The position numbers were made by a program, and so were the translations under genes. This document shows positions 56 through 21,693 of a DNA stretch of 23,847 bases, in pieces. The number at the start of each line of letters is the position of its first letter. Within the stretch, counting starts at the first letter, position 1. Location: assembly GCA_038127595.1 (NCBI GenBank), contig JAYPIC010000014.1, positions 1 through 23,847 on the forward strand, read 5' to 3'. This DNA comes from a bacterium. Its GTDB lineage: Bacteria > Fidelibacterota > Marinisomatia > Marinisomatales > UBA1611. Under the pieces are notes generated by a model. The model ran no database searches and was not told the DNA's origin. It saw nothing but the letters and a program-made list of their open reading frames with translations.

Positions 56-223
56 ATGAAAAAAAAATACTATGTGATACTAAATGCATTAATTGTGAAT
101 GCTACTATCTTTGCTCAGGGAGTTGACTTCCCATCTGAACCCGCTCAGGCACCAATCGGAGGATTAGGGCTCTTAGCGGCTGGAGGTGCAGCACTGGCAT
201 ATAAAAAATTAAGGAAAAAGTAA
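56..223 (+). CDS. 55-aa exported microprotein with a PID-CTERM/PEP-CTERM-like C-terminal sorting segment (not in ORF track)
   Basis: Manual translation MKKKYYVILNALIVNATIFAQGVDFPSEPAQAPIGGLGLLAAGGAALAYKKLRKK. AGGAG RBS at 45-49, signal peptide ending IFA-Q, then Pro-rich linker, PIGG, hydrophobic helix and basic tail. Confidence 0.8.
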   Translation: MKKKYYVILNALIVNATIFAQGVDFPSEPAQAPIGGLGLLAAGGAALAYKKLRKK

Positions 224-240
224 AAAAATCTATATTTAAA

Positions 241-268
241 AGCCCCACATTCGTGGGGTTTTTTGTTT
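241..268 (+). repeat. 28-bp island repeat, copy 1 (hairpin + T-tract; terminator-like, candidate recombination site)
   Basis: AGCCCCACATTCGTGGGGTTTTTTGTTT, 17 nt after the stop of 56..223. Confidence 0.95.
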
Positions 269-351
269 ATGGCCTAAACGCACTGGTAATACACTGGTCA
301 TTTTATAAAGTGTAATTGTTCGTATATTAAATCAAGATTAGGAGCATAGGA

Positions 352-603
352 ATGATATTAAAAACAATATTAGGTATAGCACTATTCATTAGTGGTGGTC
401 ATATAGTAAGTACTAATTTGAAATTGCACCACTACAGCGATGATGATTTCAAAGATATTTTTTACCTTAAACACAATAAATCAATTACTAAGCATTGTGA
501 GAGGCATTCAGAATTGGAAGATATTAAAAAAAAGAAATCATATCATAATCAAGAACCAAACACAGTTTATAAAGTAACTAAACACAAGGACAAGGCTTCT
601 TAA
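352..603 (+). CDS. Hypothetical 83-aa protein with N-terminal signal/TM segment
   Basis: ORF with AGGAG/AGGA RBS upstream and hydrophobic N-terminus; sole gene between repeat copies 1 and 2. Confidence 0.7.
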   Translation: MILKTILGIALFISGGHIVSTNLKLHHYSDDDFKDIFYLKHNKSITKHCERHSELEDIKKKKSYHNQEPNTVYKVTKHKDKAS

Positions 604-650
604 AAAAATCTACCCAGAAGTCTTAACATAATACTAGAATAATTATAAAG

Positions 651-678
651 AGCCCCACATTAGTGGGGTTTTTTGTTT
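651..678 (+). repeat. 28-bp island repeat, copy 2
   Basis: AGCCCCACATTAGTGGGGTTTTTTGTTT; one loop mismatch to copy 1. Confidence 0.95.
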
Positions 679-919
679 GTGGAATGATGTTTTTTTCATT
701 TGGGGCTGGAGGGGCTTTTCATGCCCCAGATTCTACTATGAGTGAAAGCATGCGACAATTTGGTGGTGTTATGGGTAAAATATGTATAGCAGCAGGATTA
801 TTTTATGCAAGTCGTATCCTTCGAATAGGTCCAAAAGGTTTAAAATGGATCACTAAGACAGATGCAGGAAAACAATTTGAAAATGAAAAAATATTCAAGA
901 TGAAAATGCTACAAAAAAA
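679..919 (+). pseudogene. 5' part of an interrupted hypothetical membrane protein gene, possibly also 5'-truncated at the repeat
   Basis: The frame of ORF 663..956 is open from inside the repeat. Joining nt 919 to nt 1960 gives a continuous frame ...KIFKMKMLQKNERIDALYEELPD... Confidence 0.55.
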
Positions 920-952
920 ATATCACAAAAAATCACAAATTAAAACAACAAA

Positions 953-1918
953 ATGAAAGCTGTTATATGGAGAAAATACGGAGATACTAAAAAAGCATTA
1001 AGTGTTGAATCTGATATTGCAATCCCAGAAATAACAAAAGACAATCAAGTATTAGTCAAGATCGAATACGCAAGTTTACACCCAGGGGATGATCATATCA
1101 TGAGACCATTAATGTTTCCAATCCGATTTATGTTTGGTTTATTTTCTCCAAAAAATCGTGTTTTTGGAATGAATGGATCAGGAATTGTACACAAAGTTGG
1201 TGATAGTGTAACAGAGTACAAGGTTGGTGATAAGGTGTTTACTGATTCTATAGGTTTGGGTGCATTAAGTGAGTATCAACTTGTTACTGATAAAAGATGT
1301 TGCAAAATTCCAAGTCATATGAGTACAAAAGAAGCAGCAGCATTAGGAACATCGTCTAGTACTGCACAATACATTGTTGATTTATTGGATATTAAAGAGA
1401 ACCAAACAGTACTTGTAACCGGGGCATCTGGTGGTGTTGGATCATCATTGGTTATGTTATTCAATCAAGCTGGTGTTATTGTAACAGGAGTTGCATCTGG
1501 AAAACATGAAGAATCGATTCGAAAACTCGGTGCCAATGAGTTCATTGATTATAAAAAAACAGATTGGGCAAATGATGATAATAAGTATGACTACATTGTG
1601 GACTGTTATAATACATTGAATTCAAAGGGTATCAAAACAATGGTTGCAAAAAAAGAATCCATTTATTATCATATTGGTGGTAATGCCTTCATGTCAGCTG
1701 TGTGGGCATCCATTACAGATAAGAAGGTTAATTTGTTAACATATGATACAAATCATGAAACAATGAAGAATCTTGTTAAGAATCTTGAAAAAGATGAATT
1801 AAAAGTGCCAATTGCAAAGGAATTTGATTCGTTGGAAAAAGTATTTGATGCAATGGATTTCTTGATGAATTCTAATAAGTCGGTTTTAGGAAAACTCGTC
1901 ATAAAAGTTCAACAGTAA
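953..1918 (+). CDS. Medium-chain dehydrogenase/reductase (MDR), zinc-independent NAD(P)H quinone-reductase-like
   Basis: MKAVIW...YG start, GroES-like domain (ASLHPGD, GIVHKVGDSVTEYKVGDKV), Rossmann motif TGASGGVG, C-terminal GKLVI; no catalytic Zn-ligand GHE motif. Confidence 0.9.
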   Translation: MKAVIWRKYGDTKKALSVESDIAIPEITKDNQVLVKIEYASLHPGDDHIMRPLMFPIRFMFGLFSPKNRVFGMNGSGIVHKVGDSVTEYKVGDKVFTDSIGLGALSEYQLVTDKRCCKIPSHMSTKEAAALGTSSSTAQYIVDLLDIKENQTVLVTGASGGVGSSLVMLFNQAGVIVTGVASGKHEESIRKLGANEFIDYKKTDWANDDNKYDYIVDCYNTLNSKGIKTMVAKKESIYYHIGGNAFMSAVWASITDKKVNLLTYDTNHETMKNLVKNLEKDELKVPIAKEFDSLEKVFDAMDFLMNSNKSVLGKLVIKVQQ

Positions 1919-1959
1919 ATATTGTGTGTACTCTATATATATATTTTAATTTAAAAAAA

Positions 1960-2173
1960 TGAGAGAATAGATGCTTTATATGAAGAGTTACCTGATATAG
2001 ATAGTTTGACCAAATTCCAAAAGCAATTTCGGCCTTCTATAGATGCTAGGATAGATAAAATGCGAATCCAAATGACAATTGAAGAAAAGGCTTTAGATGA
2101 TTACTTAAACCAGATACCTATCGGAATTACGGACCTCGTGGACATGGTAAGACCATCCTTTAAGCGCATCTAA
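1960..2173 (+). pseudogene. 3' part of the interrupted hypothetical gene (no own start)
   Basis: Stop-free frame ERIDALYEELPDIDSLTKFQKQFRPSIDARIDKMRIQMTIEEKALDDYLNQIPIGITDLVDMVRPSFKRI*, ending 9 nt before repeat copy 3. Confidence 0.6.
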
Positions 2174-2182
2174 TTTGTACTT

Positions 2183-2210
2183 AGCCCCACATTTGTGGGG
2201 TTTTTTGTTT
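2183..2210 (+). repeat. 28-bp island repeat, copy 3
   Basis: AGCCCCACATTTGTGGGGTTTTTTGTTT; followed by GTGGCCT, similar to ATGGCCT after copy 1. Confidence 0.95.
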
Positions 2211-2295
2211 GTGGCCTCACACACATTGTAGGGTAATTTTTTTGAGTTCTTTTTTAACTTTTTTAATATGTGCGTGTCTAAAGATTAACAACATA

Positions 2296-3132
2296 ATGAA
2301 ATTTTGTTTCCATATATTATTAATCTTTTTCATTCCATTTTTTTCTTCCTGTGCTGAAGATGATGAGAACTTACAATATGAAACAGATGGTTATAAAATG
2401 GTATTGTTTGGACATAGTTTTTTTAGACCATATGCTGAAAAATTTAATGAAATTGCATTAGACGCTGGCTTTGATAATCATGATGGTGTGGTTATATCTC
2501 ATGGAGGGGAAACAGGAAGTCCTGTTAATCTGTGGAGTGATTCAACACTATCACAGCATAGATTAATTAAAGAAGAATTAAATAAGGGTGGTGTCGATGT
2601 ATTAGGCATGTCCGCTGACATATTACTTGAAAACCCAACAGATGGTTATAAAGATTGGATAGAATATGCTTTGACAAATAACCCTGATATAACAGTTTTT
2701 TTATCAATGATACCTCCAAGATATCCTGATGATTGGGACTCAATTTCAAATGCGTTAGGCTATGAATCAATGCAACATACATATGATAGTTTTCTCAATT
2801 TTAGAAAAGATAGTTTGGTAGATGTATTGCGTGCTGATTTTCCTGAAAATAATATTTTTTCTATACCTACGGGTCAAGCAACATTAACATTGTATGACTT
2901 ACAACGAGATAGCCTATTACTTGATGATATCTTATACAGAGGCAATAGAGAGTACTCTCTTTTTACTGATGAATTGGGACATCAAGGAGATATAATTATA
3001 AACACTGGTGCATTAATGTGGTTAGAAAGTATTTATAGTGTAGACCTTGATGAAAACGATTATGAGACAGGTTTTAATACAGACTTACACTCTATCGCTC
3101 AAGATATTCTTGATTCTTATAATCAGAATTAG
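2296..3132 (+). CDS. Lipoprotein, putative SGNH/GDSL-hydrolase-like
   Basis: Start re-called at ATG 2296 (MKFCFHILLIFFIPFFSSC, lipobox). Block-I-like LFGHSF and a C-terminal D-x-x-x-H-like segment TDELGH. Confidence 0.65.
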   Translation: MKFCFHILLIFFIPFFSSCAEDDENLQYETDGYKMVLFGHSFFRPYAEKFNEIALDAGFDNHDGVVISHGGETGSPVNLWSDSTLSQHRLIKEELNKGGVDVLGMSADILLENPTDGYKDWIEYALTNNPDITVFLSMIPPRYPDDWDSISNALGYESMQHTYDSFLNFRKDSLVDVLRADFPENNIFSIPTGQATLTLYDLQRDSLLLDDILYRGNREYSLFTDELGHQGDIIINTGALMWLESIYSVDLDENDYETGFNTDLHSIAQDILDSYNQN

Positions 3133-3227
3133 AAATATATTACATAAATTTTATTCAGTCGTTAATCTCAACTTAATTAGACCCCACCAACCAATAAAGC
3201 ACGGGGGTAGGTATGTGTATATAATAG

Positions 3228-3255
3228 GCTCATACATTCGTGGGGTTTTTTGTTT
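3228..3255 (+). repeat. Island repeat copy 4, partial: right 22 bp identical to copy 1, left arm replaced
   Basis: gctcat-ACATTCGTGGGGTTTTTTGTTT; 3234-3255 equals 247-268; 32 nt from the integrase stop. Confidence 0.9.
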
Positions 3256-3287
3256 TAAGTGGGAGCATTACACTCCCCCCATAATCC

Positions 3288-4166
3288 CTATAACACAAAG
3301 TCATCAATCTCCGTAGCAAGTAAAGGAGCATAATGACGCTCTGTTGTGGTCACAGATGAATGACCTAGTAGCTTGCTCACTTCATAGATAGGCCTGCCTT
3401 GTCTGATTAGATTGTAACCAAAGGTTCTCCTAAGGTCGTGGAACCTGATATCAGGGATACCAAGCCTTCTGGCTTCCTTCTTGAACTTGTGTGATACAAA
3501 GTCCTTGGTATAATCCCAGAGCTCATCAAGTCCATCCAATATCTCCTGAGCTTGGTTATTCAGTTTGATTAGTCTTTTACCACTTTTACCATATGCGACT
3601 ATATGATTGGAGAATATGTTTTCCCTCGATATAGAGCGTATTTCACCGCTTCTAGCACCAGTGTAGTAAGCGAATCTGACAAACAAATTGAAGCGGTTAT
3701 CTCTTATATTATCAAGCAGTGTCTTTAGTTCAGAATCACTTAGTACTCTGTTTCTGGACTCGCCTTTTGTATCACCTTCAAGCTTGTATGCCTTAGTGAT
3801 TAGACCTTGTTTTAAACCCCAATTCCAACAAATGTTAATCACTCTAGTATGTATTGCTTTCGTAGTTGGGTGAGCTGGCAGAGGTTTACCCGAGATGTAA
3901 GCTTTTAGTATTTGAGTATTGAGTTCTCTTGTTCTAGATGTCCAATCGTGTTTGGTGAAAAGATACCTATCCACAATTTCATCAAATGACAGGTTTCTTT
4001 TTCGAGTTTTTACTCCTGTCAGTTCTGCAAGCAATTCAAGCTCAACAACTGGTTTGAGCTTTTTAGCAACTTTCTTATCTTTCGTTCGAAGGCTTCTGGT
4101 AAGCCTTTGGTTATCATAGGATGTAGTGATGTACCATACACCACGGTTTTTATAGATTGTAGCCAT
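3288..4166 (-). CDS. Tyrosine recombinase / phage-type integrase
   Basis: Catalytic motifs TGARSGE (R), GKSGK (K), FHDLRR (HxxR), LLGHS (H), TERHY (Y). Arm-binding-like N-terminus (IYKNRGVWYI...RLTRSLRTKDK). GGAGG RBS at 4171-4175. Confidence 0.95.
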   Translation of the reverse strand: MATIYKNRGVWYITTSYDNQRLTRSLRTKDKKVAKKLKPVVELELLAELTGVKTRKRNLSFDEIVDRYLFTKHDWTSRTRELNTQILKAYISGKPLPAHPTTKAIHTRVINICWNWGLKQGLITKAYKLEGDTKGESRNRVLSDSELKTLLDNIRDNRFNLFVRFAYYTGARSGEIRSISRENIFSNHIVAYGKSGKRLIKLNNQAQEILDGLDELWDYTKDFVSHKFKKEARRLGIPDIRFHDLRRTFGYNLIRQGRPIYEVSKLLGHSSVTTTERHYAPLLATEIDDFVL

Positions 4167-4229
4167 AATTCCTCCAAATTATGACTGTTTTTGCTACATA
4201 TATACTTGCGTTACTTAGTTTTCCGACGG

Positions 4230-4292
4230 AGACACGCCAGATTTAGGATCTGGTGCACTTTGTGCGTGAAGGTTCGAGCCCTTTCCGCGGTA
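4230..4292 (+). tRNA. tRNA-Leu(TAG) 3' fragment lacking the 5' acceptor strand and most of the D-arm; probable att site
   Basis: AGACACG, anticodon arm CCAGA-TTTAGGA-TCTGG (TAG 4244-4246), long variable arm GCAC-TTT-GTGC, T-arm GAAGG-TTCGAGC-CCTTT, acceptor 3' strand CCGCGGT-A. No complementary RCCGCGG or TGGCGGAA upstream. Confidence 0.85.
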
Positions 4293-4300
4293 CTTTAATT

Positions 4301-4340
4301 AAGCCTTTTTTCTTATAAAGAAATAAGGCTTTTTTATTTT
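4301..4340. terminator. Intrinsic terminator after the tRNA fragment, convergent with the DUF420 gene
   Basis: AAGCCTT(tttt)CTT-ATA-AAG(aaat)AAGGCTT followed by a T-run. Confidence 0.7.
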
Positions 4341-4371
4341 GCTTATATCTTGACGAATGAATGGTGGAGAT

Positions 4372-4890
4372 TTATAAATATAGCATAACAAAAATAATAA
4401 TCCCTGTTATTGAAACGTAAAGCCAAATAGGGAATGTAATTTTAGCAATTTTTTTGTGCTGCTGAATTTGTAAAACCATACCTCTGTAAACGCTTATCAT
4501 TGCTAAAGGCAAAATTGACATCGCTAATAGAATGTGAGTTAGGAGTACCGGATAATAAATGAAACCAAGCTCCCCTACATATGGTTTTGGTCCACTTTTA
4601 AACCAATGGTATACAACATAGCTGACTAAAAATAAAGCAGATGTGAAAAAAGCAGATAGCATAACACTTCGATGCTGCTCTCTCTTTTTTTGTCTAATTA
4701 AAACGTAGCCTGTAATCAATAATATTGTCGTCACTAAGTTTAAAAGCGCATTAACAAATGGTAAGCTTGATACATCTATCGACCCTTCAATCCCCTCAGG
4801 CCGAGGGCCAAGTATCAAAAATCCTACAGCTAAGCTTAACACAGCAGATAAAATATAGATAATCTTTAACCAGAAATTTTCTTTTTCCAT
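4372..4890 (-). CDS. DUF420 family membrane protein (oxidase-assembly associated)
   Basis: LPFVNALLN, HRSVMLSAF, LFLVSYVVYH, THILLA, HKKIAKITFPIWLYVSITG motifs; follows ctaB. Confidence 0.9.
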   Translation of the reverse strand: MEKENFWLKIIYILSAVLSLAVGFLILGPRPEGIEGSIDVSSLPFVNALLNLVTTILLITGYVLIRQKKREQHRSVMLSAFFTSALFLVSYVVYHWFKSGPKPYVGELGFIYYPVLLTHILLAMSILPLAMISVYRGMVLQIQQHKKIAKITFPIWLYVSITGIIIFVMLYL

Positions 4891-4894
4891 AATC

Positions 4895-5776
4895 TTAACT
4901 ATTTAGATCTATAAAAATGACAATAAGGAGTGCAGGGAGATATATGACTGATGTTTTAAGTAGGAGTTTTGCATTATCAACAGTTGTGTCTTTCAGTAGA
5001 GGAATCCCTGATATGAGATATCCAAATCCCAGAGCAGATGCGCCCCAAAAGTAAATTTCACCTAATATGCCAGTTACAACAAAAAATAAGGATACCGGGA
5101 TGAGTAAAAAAGCATGCCACAATATTTGTCTATTTGTCCTATCGGGCTCATTTTCAATTACTGGGAGCATTTGGAATCCCGCTTTTTTATAGTCTTCTTT
5201 GCACATCAATGCTATTGCATAAAAATGAGGGTGCTGCCAAAGAAATAAAATTGAAAATAATATCCAAGCATTAGGATTTAATTCATTTGCAGATGCCGCC
5301 CACCCACCTAATGCTGGCATTGCTCCTGGTATAGCACCGATCGTTGTGTTCAACCATGTTATTTTTTTCAAAGGGGTGTAAACAAAAATATAAAGCAGTA
5401 CAGTGATTAGTCCTAAAGCTGCGGTAAGTTGGTTCACGAAAATAATTAATATTATTAGTCCAATAATTGATAAACAAAGCCCAAAAATAAGGGCATTTTT
5501 ACTTGATATAATTCCTGCTGGTATTGGCCTAGCTTGAGTTCTGTCCATTAATTTATCTAGGTCCTTTTCGACAAAGTGATTGATTGTTCCTGCTCCTCCA
5601 GATAATAGGAAGGTCCCAATCATTGTTAAAGCAAACAGGATAATATCCATTTCATTTTGGTTTCCAAGGTAGTAGCCCAAGGCTGTAGAAACTAAAATTA
5701 GAAAAGTGATTCTGGGCTTTGTTAGTTCAACAAATGCACTAAATTGGTTTTTAGCTGGTAAAGGTTTCCTCTTCAA
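4895..5776 (-). CDS. ctaB: Protoheme IX farnesyltransferase (heme O synthase)
   Basis: LTKPRI, DLDKLMDRTQARPIP, YTPLKK, GAIPGAMP, LWQHPHF motifs. Confidence 0.97.
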   Translation of the reverse strand: MKRKPLPAKNQFSAFVELTKPRITFLILVSTALGYYLGNQNEMDIILFALTMIGTFLLSGGAGTINHFVEKDLDKLMDRTQARPIPAGIISSKNALIFGLCLSIIGLIILIIFVNQLTAALGLITVLLYIFVYTPLKKITWLNTTIGAIPGAMPALGGWAASANELNPNAWILFSILFLWQHPHFYAIALMCKEDYKKAGFQMLPVIENEPDRTNRQILWHAFLLIPVSLFFVVTGILGEIYFWGASALGFGYLISGIPLLKDTTVDNAKLLLKTSVIYLPALLIVIFIDLNS

Positions 5777-6381
5777 ACTGATTCTTTTTTAAGATTTTTG
5801 AGAAAGGAGTTAATGTGTGTTCTTAAAATAGAGATACTGCCATCATCAGTGCCGTTGTAATATTGCCTTACATCACCATTTTCGTCAATTAATACAAATT
5901 TTACAGAATGGCCAGCGGGTAAACTTTCTGACATGAACATAAACCCATCTGTGCTTAGTTTTTTTACTGATTCCATATCAGCTCTAAGAAATTTCCAACG
6001 TTCGTCTTTAACGCCATTAGCATCTGCATAATTTTTTAAAACTTCTTGAGTGTCGTATTCAGGATCGACTGATATTGAAATGAATTGTAAATCTGGATGT
6101 AATTTGTATTGTCTATATAATGTACGCATATTATTTGACATTATCGGGCATGGACCAGGGCAACTGGTAAATATAAAGTCCAATATTGAAATTTTGTTTA
6201 GTAGGCTATCCTGATTAAAATTTTTCCCGATATGGCTAGTCATGCTAAAGTCAGGGACTTTTTTTATTACTGCAGGAAGTTCATTTATTGATTCATTGGC
6301 TTTTGAAATTACCCATGTCGCACTTATTCCAAGAAAACTAACGATGACAACGATAGATATTATGTAACTTTTTTTAATCAT
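5773..6381 (-). CDS. SCO1/SenC copper chaperone
   Basis: FIFTSCPGPCP, ISVDPEYDT, distal His (GHS). Start re-called at MIKKSY (6381), overlapping the ctaA stop. Confidence 0.92.
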   Translation of the reverse strand: MIKKSYIISIVVIVSFLGISATWVISKANESINELPAVIKKVPDFSMTSHIGKNFNQDSLLNKISILDFIFTSCPGPCPIMSNNMRTLYRQYKLHPDLQFISISVDPEYDTQEVLKNYADANGVKDERWKFLRADMESVKKLSTDGFMFMSESLPAGHSVKFVLIDENGDVRQYYNGTDDGSISILRTHINSFLKNLKKESV

Positions 6382-7307
6382 TTTTCCATTGAGATTTTGT
6401 AAAATGTAAAACTTGCAACAGATAAGCCCACTAAAAGAGAAGAAAACCACATATGAAATAATTGCATCAAAGGTTTTACCTCCAAGAACACTAAAGCTTC
6501 GCCTAAAATTATCTGTGTAATTATAAGTCCCATTATAAAATTCACAGAATTTACCATAAATGAAGAAGATATAAATTTAATATCATTAACTATTTTCCAT
6601 AAATAGATAGTGAGGCCTAGTAATGTAAATCCTAGAATGGTATGCATGTATTTAAACGGACCAAGCATTTTTAATAGTATTACACCTTCAATTAAGGGAT
6701 TCTCCTTTCTGCTCATATCCAAACCACCCCGTATTTCTGTGCCTATTATTATCTCAATGAATATGCATATTAAAATTCCAAGTATGACAGGTTTAGTATG
6801 AGGGTGGTAAGAACTTTTGCTTTCAAAATTTCCAGCAATTGCATAATAGGCTTGAATAGCGCTATGTATAATGAGGCCGATAATTACGAGAGCTAGTAAT
6901 AAATGAATTGTAATTGTTACAGGGTCAAGTACTGTATCAACAAGTTTAGCACCAACCCATCCTTCCAGCAGAGTTAAAAAAAATGCTACTGTAATTGGTG
7001 CAAATACTTTTTTTGATTTTTTAAAATGTATATACCCAAAGATGAATGTTATTAAAATGATTAGACCAACTAAAGCGCCAAATAATCTATTGAGATACTC
7101 AACCCATGCTAGTACCAGATTAAATTTTTCCGGATCAATGTAATCAGGAAGTTGACTAAGGCTAGTCGGTGGAATCCACCTTCCAAAACATTTTGGCCAG
7201 TCAGGGCATCCCATACCTGCTCCTGAAACGCGGACTAATCCGCCAATGAAAATAAGCAGGTAAGTAAACACCATTGACAGTAATGAAAAATTAAAATATC
7301 GATTCAT
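6378..7307 (-). CDS. ctaA: Heme A synthase (COX15/CtaA, type with Cys pair)
   Basis: GGLVRVSGAGMGCPDWPKC, EYLNRLFG, conserved His-bearing helices; start re-called at MNRYF (7307). Confidence 0.93.
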   Translation of the reverse strand: MNRYFNFSLLSMVFTYLLIFIGGLVRVSGAGMGCPDWPKCFGRWIPPTSLSQLPDYIDPEKFNLVLAWVEYLNRLFGALVGLIILITFIFGYIHFKKSKKVFAPITVAFFLTLLEGWVGAKLVDTVLDPVTITIHLLLALVIIGLIIHSAIQAYYAIAGNFESKSSYHPHTKPVILGILICIFIEIIIGTEIRGGLDMSRKENPLIEGVILLKMLGPFKYMHTILGFTLLGLTIYLWKIVNDIKFISSSFMVNSVNFIMGLIITQIILGEALVFLEVKPLMQLFHMWFSSLLVGLSVASFTFYKISMEK

Positions 7308-7435
7308 AGTATATTGACAAATTATAAACCAAACGCCCAATAAATCTTATTACTTTTACTATCGACTTCTAATTGACCTTTATGGTAATATTGAATCTAG
7401 TTTTTACTGCGAAAATAGATATTTAATCAACATTT

Positions 7436-8941
7436 ATGTCAAAAGCTTTAAATCAAATTGAACTTGGTACAACATGTATCATCAAAGAAACTGGACAATC
7501 AGGTACTTTGCAGAGGATTTTTCATTATCCAACTAAGTATTTGGTAGAGAATGAAGAAGGTGAATTTCAATATTATTCCACTCACGAAATATCATTTGAG
7601 GGGTATGATAGACCAAAAACAAGCTTAAGTATCCCAGATATACCCTATGAAGGTATTGGAACCAGTTTTGCAAGATGGGTTCCATTTGAATCAGAAAGTC
7701 AAGTGGAACATCATTTTCTTAGTTCAAAAGAAATTGTTTGGGACATGATCACATCATTGGAGCTTTATAATATTTGGTTTGATGGCGTCCAAAGAGCGAT
7801 AGCAGATGTGGACTCTGATAGGTACGTACATAAATTCTCTTTTGATAAATTAGATCTAAAGCCAGGTTCATTTTTCAAAATTAGACCAGCAACCTTAGCA
7901 CCGTGGTTTCGTTGTCGAATTATCACAGTAGAAAAAGAAAAAGAGTTCGGCTTTGATTTTCAGATGATGCCTTTTGTAACTGAATATGTATCATTTAAGC
8001 TTGAAGAATCAAAGAATGGTGTCTTTGTCATTTGTAATCGATATAGCAAAGGACCATTTTCTTTTTTAGCACTTTTAAATTGGAATAAAAGTAAATCAAA
8101 AATCTTACAGAAGCTTGCTGAAATAACCCCAACTATTGAGTTGAAAGAAGATGACATTGCAGGCGGAGATGTAAAAGGGGCAGGAGAGCCTCAATTGAAC
8201 AGAGATCAGACTGTTGCTTTTGTTGTAAACAAATCTTTAGATGGTGATAATGACCCACTAAATGCTTTGCCGGATAAGGTGACTAGAGGTATTGCAAAGG
8301 CTCTTTTGGTGAGGATAAAAAGAGGCTCCGCTGAAAGACCTCCTATGCCAGACCTATCTGCAGCTGCAGTTCCTGCACAAGCTCCTGTCGTGGCTGAACT
8401 AACTCAAGAGCAGACGATTGCTTTAGTGGTTAATAAATCTTTGGACGGTGACAATGATCCATTAAACGCCATCGAGGATAAAGTCACCAGAGGCAAAGCA
8501 AAAGCTCTGCTGGTAAAAATTAAAAGAGGTGCCGCAGAGAGACCTGCAATGCCAGAGATGCCCTCCGCTCCTTCGTCTACCTCTTCTGCTGGCTCAACAG
8601 AACTTACCTCAGAGCAGATTTTTGCTATTGCTGTTAATAAGGCAGTTGAAGGTGACATGGAGGCGGTTAATGCTATAGATGATAAAGTTACGAGAGGAAA
8701 AGCAAAAGCATTATTAGTTAAAATTAAAAGAGGAACTGCTGAAGCGCCGCCTATGCCAGACTTATCAGCACCAAATAATGAACCTGTAATTAGCGAAGAG
8801 TCTGAAACTGAGGAACAGCTTATGGAAAGATTGATTGCCGAAGGTTTGAAAGGTAATATGGAAGAAATTAATAGCCTTGATAACAAAGTACTTCGAGGCA
8901 AGATCAAGGCTGCAATTGTAAAAGCGAAAAGAAACAAATAA
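7436..8941 (+). CDS. Hypothetical 501-aa protein: small N-terminal beta domain, SRPBCC/START-like domain, four C-terminal helical repeats
   Basis: SSKEIVWDMITSLELYNIWF resembles the SRPBCC first helix; repeats visible by eye. Confidence 0.7.
   Translation: MSKALNQIELGTTCIIKETGQSGTLQRIFHYPTKYLVENEEGEFQYYSTHEISFEGYDRPKTSLSIPDIPYEGIGTSFARWVPFESESQVEHHFLSSKEIVWDMITSLELYNIWFDGVQRAIADVDSDRYVHKFSFDKLDLKPGSFFKIRPATLAPWFRCRIITVEKEKEFGFDFQMMPFVTEYVSFKLEESKNGVFVICNRYSKGPFSFLALLNWNKSKSKILQKLAEITPTIELKEDDIAGGDVKGAGEPQLNRDQTVAFVVNKSLDGDNDPLNALPDKVTRGIAKALLVRIKRGSAERPPMPDLSAAAVPAQAPVVAELTQEQTIALVVNKSLDGDNDPLNAIEDKVTRGKAKALLVKIKRGAAERPAMPEMPSAPSSTSSAGSTELTSEQIFAIAVNKAVEGDMEAVNAIDDKVTRGKAKALLVKIKRGTAEAPPMPDLSAPNNEPVISEESETEEQLMERLIAEGLKGNMEEINSLDNKVLRGKIKAAIVKAKRNK
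8195..8938 (+). repeat. Four intragenic repeats with a ~68-aa (~204-nt) period
   Basis: Units start near aa 254, 322, 390 and 457; consensus LTxEQxxAxxVNKxxxGDxxxxNAIxDKVTRGKAKALLVKIKRG. Confidence 0.92.
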
Positions 8942-8942
8942 A

Positions 8943-9050
8943 ATGGAAGAAAGAAAACCAAATCCAATGTCAACTTCACAGCTTTTATCAATGGTTGTTT
9001 GCACAATTCTGTTAATAGTATATGTTACTTTGGTTACTTGGGTGCTTTAA
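8943..9050 (+). CDS. 35-aa single-TM microprotein (not in ORF track)
   Basis: MEERKPNPMSTSQLLSMVVCTILLIVYVTLVTWVL*; starts 1 nt after the previous stop. Confidence 0.6.
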   Translation: MEERKPNPMSTSQLLSMVVCTILLIVYVTLVTWVL

Positions 9051-9053
9051 TAA

Positions 9054-9200
9054 TTGAATTTTGATTGGCTAACAATGTCATGGATACAGCAAAATTTAGA
9101 ATGGGCTGTAGGTTTGTTACTTGTGGGTATTATTGTTTTATTCTTTTTTCCACTTTTGTTAGGCTACCAGCTAAAAGAAGAAGAAGACTCCAATGATTAG
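9054..9200 (+). CDS. 48-aa single-TM microprotein (TTG start; alternative ATG 9075)
   Basis: MNFDWLTMSWIQQNLEWAVGLLLVGIIVLFFFPLLLGYQLKEEEDSND*; tightly packed between neighbours. Confidence 0.6.
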   Translation: MNFDWLTMSWIQQNLEWAVGLLLVGIIVLFFFPLLLGYQLKEEEDSND

Positions 9201-9363
9201 TGAAAATGGATCGTTGCCAATTATATCAATTCTAGTTTTGGCATTTTGAATTCTATTGATAACCGAGGTTTTTAAACTAAAAAAAGTTCAAAGAAGACTA
9301 GTGAAAAAGATAGACATTATAAAAAAAGAATTAGACGCTCTTAAAGGGGAAAAAAGAAGATAG
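9193..9363 (+). pseudogene. CcmD-like small TM + coiled-coil protein with an in-frame TGA at 9247-9249
   Basis: MISENGSLPIISILVLAF*ILLITEVFKLKKVQRRLVKKIDIIKKELDALKGEKRR*; the stop falls mid-TM where Trp would fit. Confidence 0.55.
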
Positions 9364-9406
9364 CTTTTTGAGTTTTTTGAGGTTTTTTTGCTAATATTAA
9401 TTATCT

Positions 9407-10300
9407 ATGGAAAATAATAACTTAACTGACGAACAGAAAAAAAGTGAAAATAGTAGGATATATGTCCTTTTTTACTCTTTTTTTTTAATACCATTTATGA
9501 TTGCCGTATTTGGCGCAGTCTTTTTTCTTCTTTTTAAATTTGTTACATATGAGACAAATGATGTTGAAGAGCTTTTAAATCAAGTAAAAATTGGCTCTGC
9601 ATCTAAAAGATGGCAATCAGCCTTTGAACTTGCCAAGGTTCTCAATAATCCTGACTCAGACCCTCTGTCATCCTCTTTTAAAGATCAACTTTCTTCAGCA
9701 TACGAAAGGTCTATCCATGATGACCCTCTTGTTAGATCTTATTTAGCAATGGCTATGGGCGCCACTCAAGATACTGCATTTGGCAGTTCATTAATTAATG
9801 GCTTAGAAGATAAAAGTCTTGAAACAAGAATTGCCGCAATCCAGGCACTTGGTATGATAAAATATGCTGCGGCTGTTAATCCCATTAGTCAATTAATCGA
9901 AACTGCAGATAATGAATCTGAAAGATTATCTGCAACGATTTCTTTGGGAATGATAGGAGATGATTCTGCTGTTCCTCATTTAGTTATGTTATTAGAAGAT
10001 GAGGAGGCAAATATCAGATGGGATGCTGCTATTGCATTGGCAAAAATGGGGAATGATAGTGGGGCATATATAATTGAAGGCCTATTGGACAGAGACTATT
10101 TAAATAAGTTTAGTGAGATTGACCCCGTCGAGCAAAACAAAGTATTAATGGTTGCAATAAAAACAGCATCTATTTTGTTTGATAAAAGGTTCGAAGATAA
10201 CCTAATTTCTTTATCTAAAAATGATAAAGATCTAAGCATTAGAGATGCAGCGATCAAAGCTTTAGAGAAAAATTATAGTAACGGAACCAATAAATTATGA
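9407..10300 (+). CDS. Membrane-anchored HEAT/PBS-lyase repeat protein
   Basis: N-terminal TM, then repeated units such as RIAAIQALG, RLSATISLG, IRWDAAIALAKMG. Confidence 0.88.
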   Translation: MENNNLTDEQKKSENSRIYVLFYSFFLIPFMIAVFGAVFFLLFKFVTYETNDVEELLNQVKIGSASKRWQSAFELAKVLNNPDSDPLSSSFKDQLSSAYERSIHDDPLVRSYLAMAMGATQDTAFGSSLINGLEDKSLETRIAAIQALGMIKYAAAVNPISQLIETADNESERLSATISLGMIGDDSAVPHLVMLLEDEEANIRWDAAIALAKMGNDSGAYIIEGLLDRDYLNKFSEIDPVEQNKVLMVAIKTASILFDKRFEDNLISLSKNDKDLSIRDAAIKALEKNYSNGTNKL

Positions 10301-10851
10301 GTGATCAAAAAGAAATAGTTGCACCAAGAGCAGCTGTTGGGTCGGTGAGTAAAAGCCGGAAAACATCGATGGAAAGACGTAGCTTTTTTAGCTGGCTTGC
10401 TGTCGGTTGGCTTGGTTTTGCCGCAGCAACCGGAGGATTTTTTACAGTTATCATTAGGTATCTTTTTCCAAATGTGCTTTTTGAGCCGCCTCAATCTTTT
10501 AAAATAGGTTTTCCTGAAGATTTTGCTCCAAACTCTGTTGACATTAGATACAAAAAAGAATTCAATGCATGGATTGTTAGGGATGATGAATCTATATTCG
10601 CTTTATCTACTGTATGTACTCATCTAGGGTGTACCCCAAACTGGTTACCTACAGATAATAAATTTAAATGCCCTTGCCATGGTAGTGGTTTTAGAATGAC
10701 TGGTATTCATTTTGAAGGTCCTGCCCCTAGGCCTCTTGAGCGTTTTAAAATTGGTTTAGCTAATGATGGCCAAGTATTGGTAGATAAAACAAAAAGCTAT
10801 AAATGGGAAAAAGGTGAGTGGGAAAATAAAGATTCCTTTCTCAAAGTTTAG
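10297..10851 (+). CDS. qcrA: Rieske 2Fe-2S subunit of a cytochrome bc complex
   Basis: Tat-like ERRSFF + TM; CTHLGC and CPCHGS boxes; GPAPRPL. Confidence 0.96.
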   Translation: MSDQKEIVAPRAAVGSVSKSRKTSMERRSFFSWLAVGWLGFAAATGGFFTVIIRYLFPNVLFEPPQSFKIGFPEDFAPNSVDIRYKKEFNAWIVRDDESIFALSTVCTHLGCTPNWLPTDNKFKCPCHGSGFRMTGIHFEGPAPRPLERFKIGLANDGQVLVDKTKSYKWEKGEWENKDSFLKV

Positions 10852-10853
10852 AA

Positions 10854-11645
10854 ATGAGTGAGAAAAATAATAAATCTATTTTAGAAAAAATGGGCGAGTC
10901 CCAAGTTTGGAAATCTATCATACGTTCTGGTGTTCCTCGTACAAGAAGGCAACGTATGCATGCAATTTTAGGAAGCGTTTTTCTACACCTTCACCCTGCG
11001 CGTCTTCCCAAACATGCTGTTAAGGTAGGTTACACATGGTGTATGGGAGGGTTGTCATTTTTCTTATTTGTGAACCTCACTATTACAGGTATACTGCTCA
11101 TGTTTTATTATAGGCCAACCGTAGAATATGCATTTACCGATATAATTGACCTATCAGAGCAAGTTCCCTTAGGCATCATGCGCGAGCTGCACCGTTGGGC
11201 AGCGCATTCAATGGTTTTAATTGTATGGCTTCACATGGTTAGAGTTTTCATGACCGGTTCATATAAGCCCCCAAGAGAATTTAACTGGGGTATAGGCGTC
11301 ATTTTGATGACTTTAACTATGTTATTATCATTTACAGGATATCTATTACCTTGGGATCAATTAGCTATATGGGCTGTAACTGTGGGGTCAAATATGGCCA
11401 GAGCCACACCGTTCCTTGGTAATGAAGGTCCGGGTGCAGCGTTGCTAGCTATAGGTGACATCAATCTAGTACATGTTGGTTCCGATGTCAGGTTCGCTCT
11501 ATTGGGCGGTAGGTTTGTAGGCGAGGCAACACTGCTTAGATTTTATGTTCTGCACTGTATTGCGATACCGTTTGTTGCTATGATTTTTATGGCTGTTCAT
11601 TTTTGGAGAATCAGAAAAGATGGAGGTATTTCAGGTCCTCTGTAG
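10854..11645 (+). CDS. qcrB: Cytochrome b6-like N-terminal subunit
   Basis: TWCMGG, RELHRWAAH, WLHMVRVF, PREFNW, TGYLLPWDQ, RFYVLH...HFWRIRKDGGISGPL. Confidence 0.95.
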   Translation: MSEKNNKSILEKMGESQVWKSIIRSGVPRTRRQRMHAILGSVFLHLHPARLPKHAVKVGYTWCMGGLSFFLFVNLTITGILLMFYYRPTVEYAFTDIIDLSEQVPLGIMRELHRWAAHSMVLIVWLHMVRVFMTGSYKPPREFNWGIGVILMTLTMLLSFTGYLLPWDQLAIWAVTVGSNMARATPFLGNEGPGAALLAIGDINLVHVGSDVRFALLGGRFVGEATLLRFYVLHCIAIPFVAMIFMAVHFWRIRKDGGISGPL

Positions 11646-11666
11646 AGAGTTTCTGTTTTTCACGTT

Positions 11667-12788
11667 ATGAATTTAGTAGCTATAAAATCTGCGATTGATG
11701 CGCTTTCAGCTCCAACAATCAGTTTTACAATTTTAACTGTTATTTTCCCATTTATTTTTCCTCCATCAGACTGGTTTGAAAAAATTCATAGGAAAACTGG
11801 TTTATGGAGAATGTGGACCAAGCCTGGAGGTGTAATTGGCATGATCCTAATTACAGCTTTTTTTGTGATCGGTTATTTTGATCCATACTTCAATAAAACG
11901 TTAACCAAGGCTGACAATTTTCCTATAGTCTTAATGATATATTCTATGTGGTTTTACATTTGGCTTGGTATGTTTAAAGCTTACCGAAATGATATTAGAA
12001 TCGAGCAAGGGTTAAAGCCTGAAGAATATAATGATCCAGATGACAAAGTATTAGTATGGCCAGATCTTGTTTACATTGAGTTCATATGTTTGATATTATT
12101 TCAAGTGTTCTTAATAGTTTGGTCTATTTTAGTTGCAGCACCTATTGAAGAACCAGCAAATCCTGCAGCAACCCCTAACCCCTCAAAAGCTCCTTGGTAC
12201 TTTTTAGGATTGCAAGAAATGTTAGTTTATTATGATCCATGGATTGCAGGAGTATTACTTCCTACTTTTATTATTGTTGGATTAATGGCGATCCCATATA
12301 TGGATATTAATAAAAAAGGTGATGGATATTACTCATTTAAAGAGCGAAGAGTAGGTATGTTCATTTTCATGTATGGATGGGTTGTTCTTTGGTTATTTTT
12401 GATAATTATTGGAACATTTTTTAGAGGCCCGAATTGGAACTTCTTTGGTCCTTTTGAATACTGGGACACGCACAAAGTAGAAGCGCTTACCAATGTGAAT
12501 TTGTCTGAAATTTTATGGGTAAAGTGGTTGAACCAGGGTTTGCCATCTAACATTCTAATTAGAGAAGGGTTAGGTTTTGTAATCACAGGAGCATACCTTT
12601 TTGTTCTTCCTGTGATTTTAGCGAAGACGTATTTAAAAGATATGTATACCGCTTACGGTCCTACTAGATTTGTGAGTTTAATGATCTTTGGTCTTGTTAT
12701 GTTGGCATTGCCTATAAAGATGTACCTGCGGTGGATCTTTAATCTTCAGTACATAATCGCTATTCCTGAATGGTTTTTTAATATTTAG
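11667..12788 (+). CDS. Cytochrome b subunit IV-like protein with extra TM helices
   Basis: VWPDLV, PANPAATPNPSKAPWYFLGLQE (PEWY-equivalent), PYMD. Confidence 0.88.
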   Translation: MNLVAIKSAIDALSAPTISFTILTVIFPFIFPPSDWFEKIHRKTGLWRMWTKPGGVIGMILITAFFVIGYFDPYFNKTLTKADNFPIVLMIYSMWFYIWLGMFKAYRNDIRIEQGLKPEEYNDPDDKVLVWPDLVYIEFICLILFQVFLIVWSILVAAPIEEPANPAATPNPSKAPWYFLGLQEMLVYYDPWIAGVLLPTFIIVGLMAIPYMDINKKGDGYYSFKERRVGMFIFMYGWVVLWLFLIIIGTFFRGPNWNFFGPFEYWDTHKVEALTNVNLSEILWVKWLNQGLPSNILIREGLGFVITGAYLFVLPVILAKTYLKDMYTAYGPTRFVSLMIFGLVMLALPIKMYLRWIFNLQYIIAIPEWFFNI

Positions 12789-12803
12789 TATTGAGTAAAA
12801 TTT

Positions 12804-15785
12804 ATGTTTAAAAACGACGAACGATATTGGGATATTAACTTATTAAACAAGTGGTTTGCTATTTCCTCTGTAGTATTCCTTGTAGTAATGGTATGGGTGT
12901 TCATAGATGATAATGATGATGAGTTTAAAGAATATCAAAAAGAATTTCGAAAGCTTCAGATTGAAATAACCAAAGAAAAGCTAAATGAGGAGCAGTCACT
13001 TGTTGATGGAAAATCAGAAGAGTATGAACTTGAACTTGCCAGAGCTGTAAAATTATTTGATGATAAGTCAGAAGAAGTTGAAAAAATTAATGGTGAGTTA
13101 GGTGAGTTAAGAGCTGGTTTCTACAAAACAAATTTAAAGTTTAAAGGGGAGAAAGCTGAGCTTGATGTACTAAAGTTTAAACTTGAAAGTGCAAATTTAA
13201 AAGGTGGAAATGAGTCTGATGCGGTAAGAAAAGAATACAAAGAGAAATCTTCTGCTTTTAATGAACTTAAATTAATTAAAGAGCAGTTCGAGATCGACAT
13301 TGCTAGCCGTGAAAAGAAGATCAAAAGTTTAAAAGCCGATATTAAGGCTGTAAAAGATGAAAGAGATAAAATACTCAAAAAAGTTGACTTAGCTCAAAAT
13401 AGGCTAGCATCACTAGATAGATCCAAAATGTCATTTATGAACAAGCTTGGAGATATTGTCAGAGATCTACCTATTTTAGATTTTATGGATCCTTATTACA
13501 AAGTTAAGCAGACCGTTGTTAAGGATGTATTATATGATGTTAATTTCACTGCTATGCCCGCTGTTGATCGTTGTACTAGTTGTCATCTTGGTATTGCTAA
13601 TCCTGATTTTAAAGATGCAGAGCAGCCTTACACGACGCACCCAGATTTAGATTTATATTTAACGAGTAAATCTCCGCACCCTGAAGAGTCATTTGGTTGT
13701 ACGTCCTGTCATTCAGGTAGAAGTAGGGGTACGTCTTTCTTATCGTCTGCTCATACGCCTAATACACCTGAGCAGAAAAAAGAATGGAAAGAGAAATATG
13801 ATTGGAAGCCAGTAAAGCATTGGCTCCAACCAATGTTACCGACTAGATATACCCAAGCAAGCTGTTTCAAGTGTCATCAAAATACAAGTGACCTTGCTGG
13901 AGCTGAAAAAATAAATCTCGGTTTAACCTTAATTGATCGCTCTGGTTGTAATGGCTGTCACGTATCAGCAAACTGGGAGTCCAAAGGCAAATCTGGCCCA
14001 GATCTTAGAAAGTTAAATGAAAAATCGCACCCAGAATGGGTTGCAAAGTGGATCAAAAATCCTCGAGCTTTTAGATACAACACTCGTATGCCTCATGTTT
14101 TTGAACAAGCGAATCAAGAAAAACCAAATATTGCTAAAAGAAATGTAACAGAAATTGCATCGATTACGCATTATCTCTTTGAAGGTAAGGAAGTCAAAAA
14201 ATCTAAAAATCCTTCCAAGTATTTAGGAGATCCGTCTAATGGAGAGAAATTATTTTCCGCTGTGGGCTGTATGGGTTGTCACGTCAAAGAGCAGGATCCA
14301 TCTTTAGCTCCACAAACAACAACCTTTAAAGAGCTAACCAAATTGCAAGGTCCAAATCTTATAGGTATGGGATCAAAGGTTACTCCAGAATGGCTTTTTA
14401 ATTGGTTGAAAAAACCTCATGAATATATGCCTTCGACTAGGATGCCAGATCTTCGATTAAGTGATAGTGATGCAAAAGATATCACTGCTTACCTTTATGA
14501 TAATAAAAATTATGATTTTGATCAATTAGATGCTCCAGAAGCAGACAATGATGTCCTTGATGAGCTCACACTTGACTGGCTCATGAAAATGAATCCAGAA
14601 AAGTATGCAATAGAGAAAGCATCTAAAATGTCCAAAGATGAGAAGATGTCTTTTGTTGGGGAAAAAAGTATTAGACATTACGGATGCTATGGATGTCATA
14701 ATATTGATGGGTTTATGGATGCTAAACCAATTGGTGTAGAAATCACCCAGGAAGGGTCTAAGCCTGTTGATAAGTTTGATTTTGGTTTGTATCATGATAT
14801 TCCTCACACTATACATGATTGGATTGAAAATAAATTACGCACACCTAGGATTTACGACAGAGGTAAAGAAAGTGAGCCACTAGACTTACTCAGAATGCCT
14901 AATTTTCATTTTACAGAAGAAGAAATAGAAGCAGTAACTATGGCTGTTTTATCCTTCAACACTGATAAAGTGGGAGAGCCACTACTTGCTCATAATAAAG
15001 TTCCAGATTATAATAAAGAGGGTCATAGGCTAGTCAAAAAATATAATTGTCAAGGTTGTCATTTGATTGAAAACAGAGGTGGTCAGCTAGTAGAGCAAAT
15101 CGGAGCTCCTGAATATGGTCCTCCTAATCTTCATTCACAAGGAAGAAAAACAAACCCGAACTGGTTGATTAAGTTTTTTAATAATCCAATGACTGTTAGG
15201 CCAAATCTTCAGGTTAGAATGCCTAGTTTCCATCAAATAAGTGATAAAGAGTGGGATACTATTATTAAGTACTTCCAGAGCATAGACGATGAAAATACTG
15301 GTTATAGAGCTCCTCACCAATTTGCTTCAAGCAGCAGTAAATTTAAAGCTGGTGAAAAAGTGCATGAGTTAGGTGCTTGTAATAATTGTCATTTTTATGG
15401 TACTGAGTTTCCTACGCAGGTTGCATCTACTTGGGCTCCAAATTTAGCTTTGACCAAAGAAAGATTAAACCCAGAATGGGTTGTAGATTGGCTTAGAGAG
15501 CCGCAAACTATTATGCCGGGTACAAAAATGCCTGCTCCTTATTTGCCTACGCCTGACGTTTTAGAGACTGATGATGCGGTAGAAACGTGGGGTAGAGATC
15601 TTGTAAAGCTTAAAGGTAATCAAGAGGCAATGCTAGAAGGTTTACGAGACTACATGTGGAATATTAAAGGTAAAGTAGATATCAGCGCTGAGATCAAAGA
15701 GTATTTCGACGAAAATGGATATGATTTTTCTGATGGATCTGAAGATTATGATGATGAAGACGATTGGGATGATGAAGACTGGTAA
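12804..15785 (+). CDS. Membrane-anchored octaheme cytochrome c with coiled-coil stalk (bc complex c subunit)
   Basis: Eight CxxCH motifs (CTSCH, CTSCH, CFKCH, CNGCH, CMGCH, CYGCH, CQGCH, CNNCH); N-terminal TM; repeated GPxL...W...P...RMP class-I c domains. Confidence 0.92.
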   Translation: MFKNDERYWDINLLNKWFAISSVVFLVVMVWVFIDDNDDEFKEYQKEFRKLQIEITKEKLNEEQSLVDGKSEEYELELARAVKLFDDKSEEVEKINGELGELRAGFYKTNLKFKGEKAELDVLKFKLESANLKGGNESDAVRKEYKEKSSAFNELKLIKEQFEIDIASREKKIKSLKADIKAVKDERDKILKKVDLAQNRLASLDRSKMSFMNKLGDIVRDLPILDFMDPYYKVKQTVVKDVLYDVNFTAMPAVDRCTSCHLGIANPDFKDAEQPYTTHPDLDLYLTSKSPHPEESFGCTSCHSGRSRGTSFLSSAHTPNTPEQKKEWKEKYDWKPVKHWLQPMLPTRYTQASCFKCHQNTSDLAGAEKINLGLTLIDRSGCNGCHVSANWESKGKSGPDLRKLNEKSHPEWVAKWIKNPRAFRYNTRMPHVFEQANQEKPNIAKRNVTEIASITHYLFEGKEVKKSKNPSKYLGDPSNGEKLFSAVGCMGCHVKEQDPSLAPQTTTFKELTKLQGPNLIGMGSKVTPEWLFNWLKKPHEYMPSTRMPDLRLSDSDAKDITAYLYDNKNYDFDQLDAPEADNDVLDELTLDWLMKMNPEKYAIEKASKMSKDEKMSFVGEKSIRHYGCYGCHNIDGFMDAKPIGVEITQEGSKPVDKFDFGLYHDIPHTIHDWIENKLRTPRIYDRGKESEPLDLLRMPNFHFTEEEIEAVTMAVLSFNTDKVGEPLLAHNKVPDYNKEGHRLVKKYNCQGCHLIENRGGQLVEQIGAPEYGPPNLHSQGRKTNPNWLIKFFNNPMTVRPNLQVRMPSFHQISDKEWDTIIKYFQSIDDENTGYRAPHQFASSSSKFKAGEKVHELGACNNCHFYGTEFPTQVASTWAPNLALTKERLNPEWVVDWLREPQTIMPGTKMPAPYLPTPDVLETDDAVETWGRDLVKLKGNQEAMLEGLRDYMWNIKGKVDISAEIKEYFDENGYDFSDGSEDYDDEDDWDDEDW

Positions 15786-15788
15786 AGG

Positions 15789-16634: not shown

Positions 16635-16665
16635 AAAAAAAAAGGCGAACAGAGTGCTCGCCTTT
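16635..16665 (-). terminator. Intrinsic terminator between the cupredoxin-like gene and the CusF-SCO gene
   Basis: Minus strand AAAGGCGAGC-ACTCT-GTTCGCC then T9 directly before the next ATG. Confidence 0.7.
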
Positions 16666-16686
16666 CCTTAATTTATTTTTTCAGAT

Positions 16687-17394: not shown

Positions 17395-17516
17395 ATCAAG
17401 AATTCCTTATATATAATTATTTATAACTTAAATTTATTACAATAATGTCAATGACATCAATATTATTAAGATTGAATTGTGAGGTTCACTTGTTATCGAT
17501 TAGGGAGCGCACATAA

Positions 17517-18014: not shown

Positions 18015-18019
18015 ATCAA

Positions 18020-18178
18020 ATGTATTACATGGCAAAATCGCTTCAACTACTTGGAATTTTTTCTATACCGATAGGGGTCATTGTGAAATACCCAAAGCTT
18101 ATGGATCCTAAATTATTTTTAGCTTCTTTGATTATTTTTGGATCTGGAATGGCTATTGAGAAATACTTACTTAAATAA
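18020..18178 (+). CDS. 52-aa two-TM microprotein (not in ORF track)
   Basis: MYYMAKSLQLLGIFSIPIGVIVKYPKLMDPKLFLASLIIFGSGMAIEKYLLK*; 5 nt after the previous stop, same strand as the operon. Confidence 0.7.
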   Translation: MYYMAKSLQLLGIFSIPIGVIVKYPKLMDPKLFLASLIIFGSGMAIEKYLLK

Positions 18179-18243
18179 GTAATTATTTTATGTGATTTAT
18201 TCGTATTAAAATCATTAATTTTGACATCTAAATACTTATAATT

Positions 18244-18567: not shown

Positions 18568-18589
18568 AACAACTTTTTCGGAGTAAAAA

Positions 18590-20311: not shown

Positions 20312-20318
20312 ATAGATT

Positions 20319-20918: not shown

Positions 20919-20928
20919 AGGGTTATTT

Positions 20929-21258: not shown

Positions 21259-21270
21259 AGGATTTGTTTT

Positions 21271-21690: not shown

Positions 21691-21693
21691 GTT

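Follow-up and report, generated by a model that had tools for sequence, protein, structure and literature searches.

Terminator-shaped linkers bound exchangeable gene cassettes in tRNA-linked islands of a Marinimicrobia family

Introduction

Integrons are recognized by an integrase, IntI, that carries an extra domain, and by attC sites with RYYYAAC/GTTRRRY cores. The stretch of DNA considered here (the window; 23,847 nucleotides (nt) at the start of contig C14 of the 2.0-Mb, 96% complete Marinimicrobia genome G000) holds near its left edge small cargo genes separated by a hairpin-forming repeat and adjoining a tyrosine integrase, which an earlier note on the sequence had read as an integron-like, gene-capturing array. 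As in integrons, such arrays are long and co-oriented and consist mostly of single-gene cassettes with a tight fit between open reading frame (ORF) and repeat; their cargo is also typical (GNAT acetyltransferases, methyltransferases, helix-turn-helix (HTH) regulators and unknowns), and a tyrosine recombinase lies beside many of them. Unlike integrons, neither G000 nor the array-rich genomes encode IntI, attC cores are absent, the repeat resembles a terminator hairpin and is joined to a promoter-like module, and the integrase is convergent and has a tRNA attachment (att) site.

Another comparison is with the promoter/stem-loop (PeSL) elements of T4-like phages, in which a conserved intergenic stem-loop is joined to a promoter and a start codon. 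As far as the available parts of the two descriptions extend, PeSLs are clustered in hypervariable regions, where they separate small, unrelated genes; they are the points to which gains, losses and swaps map, mini-circles have been shown, and no dedicated recombinase is identified (PMC2839356, PMC4122927). On this partial basis, the Marinimicrobia linker would resemble a PeSL as an intergenic unit of stem-loop, predicted promoter and start codon, and like a PeSL it is concentrated in hypervariable regions, with indels and swaps mapping to it. It differs in being chromosomal, in tRNA-integrated elements and not in a T4-like phage genome, in lacking the TTGACA-N17-TATAAT consensus, and in having its terminator half best conserved with several alternative right modules; mini-circles are shown for PeSLs, whereas the linker is known from contigs alone.

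Prochlorococcus tycheposons, in the available part of their description, are small tRNA-targeting tyrosine-integrase elements with a short backbone, cargo and partial tRNA scars (10.1101/2020.12.28.424599). Compared by description, the present elements share the small size, tRNA targeting, short backbone with cargo and partial tRNA scars from repeated integration, but no repeated linker between cargo genes is described in that part of the source. The same holds for the accessible text on additive flexible islands built behind tRNAs (PMC4033161) and on tRNA-anchored or additive islands of Pelagibacter (10.64898/2026.04.03.716430). A literature search returned no description of the motif or of such arrays in Marinimicrobia, although supplements were outside its coverage and a mention elsewhere is possible.

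The repeat in the window and across genomes

A motif scan of the window found copies at 241, 651, 2183 and 3228, spaced by 410, 1532 and 1045 bp, which reproduces the positions and segment lengths of the earlier note; the left arm of the copy at 3228 is broken. Copies 1–3 lie 17, 47 and 9 nt past stop codons ending at 223, 603 and 2173, matching the 9–47 nt previously given, and the scan returned no fifth copy in the window, in agreement with the reported absence from its other ~19.5 kb. Also correctly described were the adjoining 3′ end of a convergent tyrosine integrase (minus strand) and the spacing of about 70 amino acids (aa) between its catalytic R and HxxR, which measures 71 aa from R172 to H243. 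Three other points needed revision. The 28-bp site is not the whole unit, since one of several conserved modules trails every copy and the real unit, called the linker here, is longer. The proposed tRNA-Leu island does contain tRNA-Leu sequence, but only a fragment (bases 21–84), the intact gene being on contig C10; ARAGORN called no tRNA in the window, and an Rfam search gave nothing at gathering score. Nor is the motif limited to this island: in the same genome C50 has three copies behind tRNA-Lys, C29 has one behind tRNA-Asp, and C10 and C70 have one diverged copy each, among accessory genes near contig ends. As the window begins at the contig start, the left part of the island is absent from it.

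With one mismatch allowed, the motif was counted in 41 genomes (its own, 24 of the same family and 16 of other families) and occurs in 21 of the 24 same-family genomes against 2 of the 16 others. A reversed-pattern control gave no match in any of the 41, so the occurrence is not due to chance. No copy was found after a core gene in G000 or in G007 (10 contigs, 92% complete), where a single tRNA-Pro island accounts for 13 of 14 copies and another integrase element for the last. Copies are confined to accessory, tRNA-linked islands and not dispersed behind core genes, a dispersal that would have refuted the proposal of the earlier note. Orientation is uniform in two arrays (21:0 and 16:0 copies), and opposite-strand ORFs make up about 1/10 of upstream and 1/6 of downstream neighbours. 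Of the cargo proteins, 34 were scanned and 20 matched Pfam families, which include GNAT acetyltransferases, methyltransferases, HTH regulators and FlgD/secretion-tail proteins. The locus is an array of co-oriented, exchangeable, mostly single-gene cassettes, and the motif arrays are a real, family-wide cassette system.

As a separate observation, the cargo gene upstream of the linker has a near-identical FlgD-Ig/secretion-tail domain at its end in 40 of 402 cases (e.g., locus L152 6707–7837 and L153 1259–3124), and this domain could serve as a second homology anchor for shuffling.

Linker anatomy

Linker statistics were drawn from 402 distinct copies in fetched loci. The conserved core runs from about 6 nt ahead of CACATT through the end of TTTTTTGTTT, the hairpin folds better on the + strand, and the median distance past the stop codon is 21 nt (281 copies). 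To the right of the hairpin and T-tract (motif A) follow alternative modules: B1 in 184 copies, the integrase-end module I in 63, B2 in 26 and others in fewer, with 100 unclassified. In 69 of 161 B-type copies an ATG stands exactly 5 nt past TA(G/T)ATT, and this fixed spacing suggests a leaderless promoter, a role predicted from sequence. The repeat is a hairpin of terminator shape, in most cases with a promoter-like module and then a start codon to its right. Modules C, D, E and F are parts of the ends of elements, which elsewhere lie next to tRNA att sites. B1-like matches elsewhere in G000 proved to be inside coding sequence or due to chance, and derivation of the motif from a tRNA end was discarded as tRNA ends do not contain it. 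A core search, which is not a covariance model, placed the attC RYYYAAC/GTTRRRY pair near 1 of the 402 copies, in line with the absence of attC cores stated earlier.

The exact 25-mer also occurs outside the arrays. In nine of ten viral contigs (L209–L218) it is a lone hairpin in terminator position after tail-type genes, tail sheath- or tube-like according to a reading of their translations; L212 has a full linker including module B1. These contigs are possible phages of the same hosts.

Neighbour changes at the linker

After removal of pairs with shared C-terminal-domain genes, 57 pairs of copies have the same upstream gene, and the downstream gene is also shared in 5 of them and different in 52. 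Conversely, 83 pairs share a downstream gene other than the integrase, of which 3 also share the upstream gene, and the 59 copies next to an integrase have 55 different upstream neighbours. Identity drops to background right past the T-tract in upstream-sharing pairs and is at background left of the stem in downstream-sharing pairs. The proposal that related loci should differ with breakpoints at the motif is thereby borne out. An initial count of 456 of 763 alignment ends at the motif was dropped, being inflated by cargo with the FlgD/secretion-type C-terminal domain, and was replaced by the recount above.

Individual loci display the same pattern. A cassette in the tRNA-Pro array of L152 matches the segment 301–688, which holds cassette 1, at 92%, and L158 matches it at 86%; identity stops at the linker. 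L228 holds 2181–4168, including cassette 3, at 87% beside a tRNA-Pro-type integrase, with identity beginning at the linker, and L238 occupies the chromosomal site of the window (93% over 3234–6000) with other cassettes, identity beginning inside copy 4. One cassette is present twice in L152 with different right neighbours, and cassette 2 was recovered at ~99% identity in three other runs. In the RNA run X15, uncovered parts of the window were not taken as silence.

Joins are found at two places within the repeat. Two hybrids, copy 4 of the window and one in L228, are joined at CACATT; for comparison with the former, module E continues into B2 at C29 5018–5053. Other joins lie in the T-tract: module B1 stands behind T-tracts other than that of motif A in 37 of 185 cases and module I in 10 of 82, cases of tRNA-Asp terminators fused straight to module I among them; both tRNA terminators and module C are joined to right-hand modules there. 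Loci L289 (3358–3520), L280 and L275, where nothing intervenes between a tRNA-Asp terminator and module I, are empty or collapsed elements.

Integrase and tRNA-targeting elements

The integrase is not IntI, as the earlier note recognized: it scores 28 bits against TIGR02249, whose cut-off is 265. No protein of G000 exceeds that cut-off, and 9 of the 41 genomes have one that does; within the family these are just G020 and G023 of 25 genomes, and G023 has no motif match. Action of IntI in trans was discarded for lack of co-occurrence with the motif.

On C10, three small backbone ORFs lie behind the intact tRNA-Leu(TAG), and after them comes cargo that runs off the contig. This piece and that of the window are probably one element, although no contig was found that joins the start of C10 to the start of the window. 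Positions 4230–4293 are the attachment-site duplicate of tRNA-Leu(TAG), and the integrase has its own tRNA att site. A tyrosine integrase, an intact tRNA and a duplicated 3′ part of that tRNA together point to a tRNA-targeting integrative element. Complete elements with both ends were found for tRNA-Leu (L283) and tRNA-Asp (L163, L236, L276). In L283 and L163 the order is tRNA, three backbone ORFs, cassettes, linker, module I, convergent integrase and duplicated tRNA end; L236 and L276 keep one or none of the backbone ORFs. When the three conserved backbone ORFs were considered as a possible replication module, the 166-aa one gave weak PHROG matches (E 0.005–0.007), and the 208-aa one matched unnamed clusters only. 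A relative at the same site (L136 1239–5381) has two more secreted-protein genes between the tRNA-Leu fragment and a DUF420 gene.

The integrase family targets Leu, Pro, Asp and Ala tRNAs. Between Asp-type integrases and that of the window, identity is 91–94% in the 3′ half and 51–58% in the first third, and third codon positions agree at 83–84% and 41%, respectively. A near-identical 3′ half beside a 5′ part that has diverged even at third positions indicates exchange between elements, and the N-terminal half may set the tRNA target. Elsewhere in G000, C21 (14035–14685) encodes a 355-aa XerC-like recombinase with a ~44-aa insertion early in the catalytic domain, present in most genomes of the genus, and a selenocysteine tRNA was called on C46 (1763–1854).

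Recombination at the linker

Array structure, island location and neighbour changes at the linker are observed directly. The account of them judged somewhat better than even is that the linker (predicted terminator, promoter and start codon) separates one- or two-gene cassettes in tRNA-integrated, satellite-like elements, and that cassettes are gained, lost and reordered by homology-driven recombination within it. The integrase would move the whole element in and out of a tRNA gene and would itself be swapped like a cassette. Linker identity over 29–50 bp would allow host recombination, either by RecA or by microhomology joining, to exchange cassettes between elements and islands, each cassette bringing its own expression signals; new genes would enter via similar terminators of their own, and the elements may travel in phage particles or vesicles. 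RecA is encoded, which supports a host route, and joins at two places in the repeat are more readily explained by homology or microhomology than by a single fixed site.

Several results weigh against homology-driven exchange. An identity of 29–50 bp is short for RecA, and ComEC and DprA were not found in the 96% complete G000, making transformation unlikely as a route. The pairs counted above are not independent, the loci were mostly chosen by motif, and assemblies built with a short k can make false joins where a 50-bp repeat occurs. A contig of the oxidoreductase gene from run X5 departs from the window at 914 and not at the linker, which tells against a clean break-at-linker rule. The stem shows few compensatory changes (3 G-C at one pair), a degree of sequence conservation that exceeds the needs of a hairpin; this is compatible with homogenisation and equally with a binding protein. 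The leaderless-promoter signal is not a feature of the genome at large, as TAnnnT lies 5 nt ahead of ATG in 41 of 630 genes with no excess over other spacings. No convincing circular joint between motif copies was found among contigs, with short joints whose sides span 20–44 letters unused. Finally, some crossovers are bracketed by a few informative alleles to +2..+6, the palindrome centre, in a mapping that rests on two clusters, is not significant and is underpowered.

These alleles keep alive a second reading, considered rather unlikely, in which a site-specific recombinase has the linker as its own dedicated site, giving a family-wide, integron-like gene capture without IntI or attC; the enzyme might be the catalytic half that the integrases have in common or another host protein. 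Allele linkage and the two hybrids indicate the palindrome centre, as a tyrosine recombinase would give, and the primary sequence including the loop is highly conserved. The association with the integrase is close: the motif lies 57 nt past the integrase stop in six of seven evaluable loci, the integrase comes after module I in 60 of the 61 sites that leave room for it, and in 51 of 60 metagenome sites with an integrase the motif immediately precedes module I (the search pattern included the last four bases of the motif). The 59 integrase-adjacent copies follow 55 distinct upstream clusters, and integrase residues 141–292 are 84–99% identical across Leu-, Pro- and Asp-targeting elements (window, L228, L236, L246, L276 and L283), against 49–94% for residues 1–140.

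The clustering near integrase homologues expected by the earlier note thus holds in those evaluable loci, but not throughout. No motif lies near a 58% identical homologue, and a search for close homologues found them in only 13 of 54 family genomes. The integrase next to a 16-copy array is just 31% identical, and a 21-copy array sits right behind tRNA-Pro on a contig with no integrase. The hairpin itself argues the same way. Its loop base is variable (C in 79% of copies), whereas most tyrosine recombinases need matching spacers, and the + strand carries a G.T pair in 271 of 402 copies but A.C in only one, which favours RNA folding over a DNA palindrome. With a tRNA att site already assigned to the integrase of the window, and with joins also in the T-tract next to unrelated hairpins, the motif is not supported as the dedicated site of that integrase. 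What stands of the proposed capture platform is the array, its terminator-shaped boundaries, its place in accessory islands and the neighbour changes; the integrase as enzyme and the motif as its site are not supported.

Tandem accretion, in which small elements integrate successively at a tRNA and each leaves its terminator behind, is improbable as the general origin of the arrays. It does have true att scars in its favour, and some boundaries do come from tandem integration: modules F and C flank six tRNA-Pro 3′ fragments in G007:C8 and two in G005:C10. The motif lies directly behind tRNA-Gly in L169, and modules C, D and E of the window are element-end remnants. Most copies, however, including all four in the window, have no adjoining tRNA fragment, and several can lie within one element bounded by attL and attR (three in L163). 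The tRNA-Asp element L163 even contains a cassette pair bearing a tRNA-Pro scar (7779–8668), indicating that cargo moved by another route. Accretion therefore explains some boundaries but not the linker-bounded ones, for which it is disfavoured. The tRNA-Pro(TGG) 3′ fragments (about bases 28–76) are repeated in L189–L191 (G007:C8) and in L152.

It is likewise improbable that the motif is just a favourite terminator of the lineage, with breaks produced by early intergenic divergence or assembly misjoins: its shape and position, the nine viral contigs with the identical 25-mer as an ordinary single terminator, a similar terminator behind tRNA-Leu(TAA) on C34 and assembly graphs that branch heavily at the motif (at least 724 contigs touching a 4.7-kb stretch in one run, with a depth peak at the motif) would fit, but the lack of copies after core genes in G000 and G007 would not, 3′ untranslated regions and left-arm alleles stay with the upstream gene as far as the stem before identity falls, hybrids with element-end modules need real recombination, and cassette 2 differs several-fold or more in depth from its window neighbours independently of any join (~53 and ~123 in two DNA runs, against 0 to 25 in the neighbours' interior bins).

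Features of the window

The coordinates of the island are collected in Table 1. The next relatives of the cassette 2 oxidoreductase outside its own cluster are just 30–42% identical. A eukaryotic or giant-virus origin of this cassette, considered from an AT-rich spacer, was unsupported; protein P0002, met in that check, is an apparent chimera with ribosomal protein L2. At 885 and 1952 other runs have one extra base, which gives the ORF 684–956 a different frame end. Beyond the island, 4372–22536 holds a respiratory cluster with heme A/O synthesis, SCO1, Rieske, cytochrome b and cytochrome c oxidase subunits and a 993-aa multiheme cytochrome c, together with a 501-aa ORF without a Pfam match (7436–8941).

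Table 1. Features of the cassette island at the left end of the window.
Feature	Position	Strand	Remarks
55-aa cargo ORF with PID-CTERM-like sorting tail	56..223	+	NF046080 22.9 bits, below cut-off 26; upstream part of segment off contig
Linker copy 1 (motif A: hairpin and T-tract)	241..268	+	predicted RNA hairpin -15.9 kcal/mol on +, -12.1 on -
Module C, short direct repeat; elsewhere trails tRNA-Pro end	274..304	+	putative integrase arm-site remnant
Cassette 1: 83-aa ORF, no known family	352..603	+	no Pfam/PHROG/NCBIfam match
Linker copy 2, then truncated promoter-like module B1	651..689	+	
Cassette 2	684..2173	+	three ORFs: 684-956, 953-1918, 2006-2173
Cassette 2, short ORF	684-956	+	
Cassette 2, NADPH:quinone-reductase-like oxidoreductase	953-1918	+	Pfam ADH_N/ADH_zinc_N_2
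Cassette 2, short ORF or fragment	2006-2173	+	
Linker copy 3 and module B2	2183..2242	+	60-nt match to two C50 copies
Cassette 3: 278-aa predicted exported protein, no family match	2296..3132	+	
Modules D and E, left-end remnants of tRNA-Lys/Asp-type elements	3163..3233	+	
Linker copy 4: hybrid, module E/B2 left and motif A right, joined in shared CACATT-like stretch	3228..3255	+	
Module I, small hairpin between linker and integrase stop	3258..3280	+	
292-aa tyrosine integrase (R172, H243-x-x-R246, H269, Y279)	3288..4166	-	phrog_1 E 2.7e-36
3′ fragment (bases 21-84) of tRNA-Leu(TAG), right attachment site of element	4230..4293	+	identical to intact gene on C10

Implications

Integron detectors seek IntI and attC and so would miss these arrays, while the motif is a simple handle for gathering the cassette pool from metagenomes. 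Hybrids of ordinary terminators with the linker suggest how new cassettes might arise, a question that is open for integrons too. If site-specific capture at the linker were true, each captured gene would be expressed as an insulated unit, and the cassettes circulating among ocean Marinimicrobia would form a very large pool. The linker arrays offer a testable account of gene-by-gene turnover of the accessory genome in a lineage that is abundant in the ocean and mostly uncultured. The route is one described chiefly for T4-like phages and not for bacterial chromosomes.

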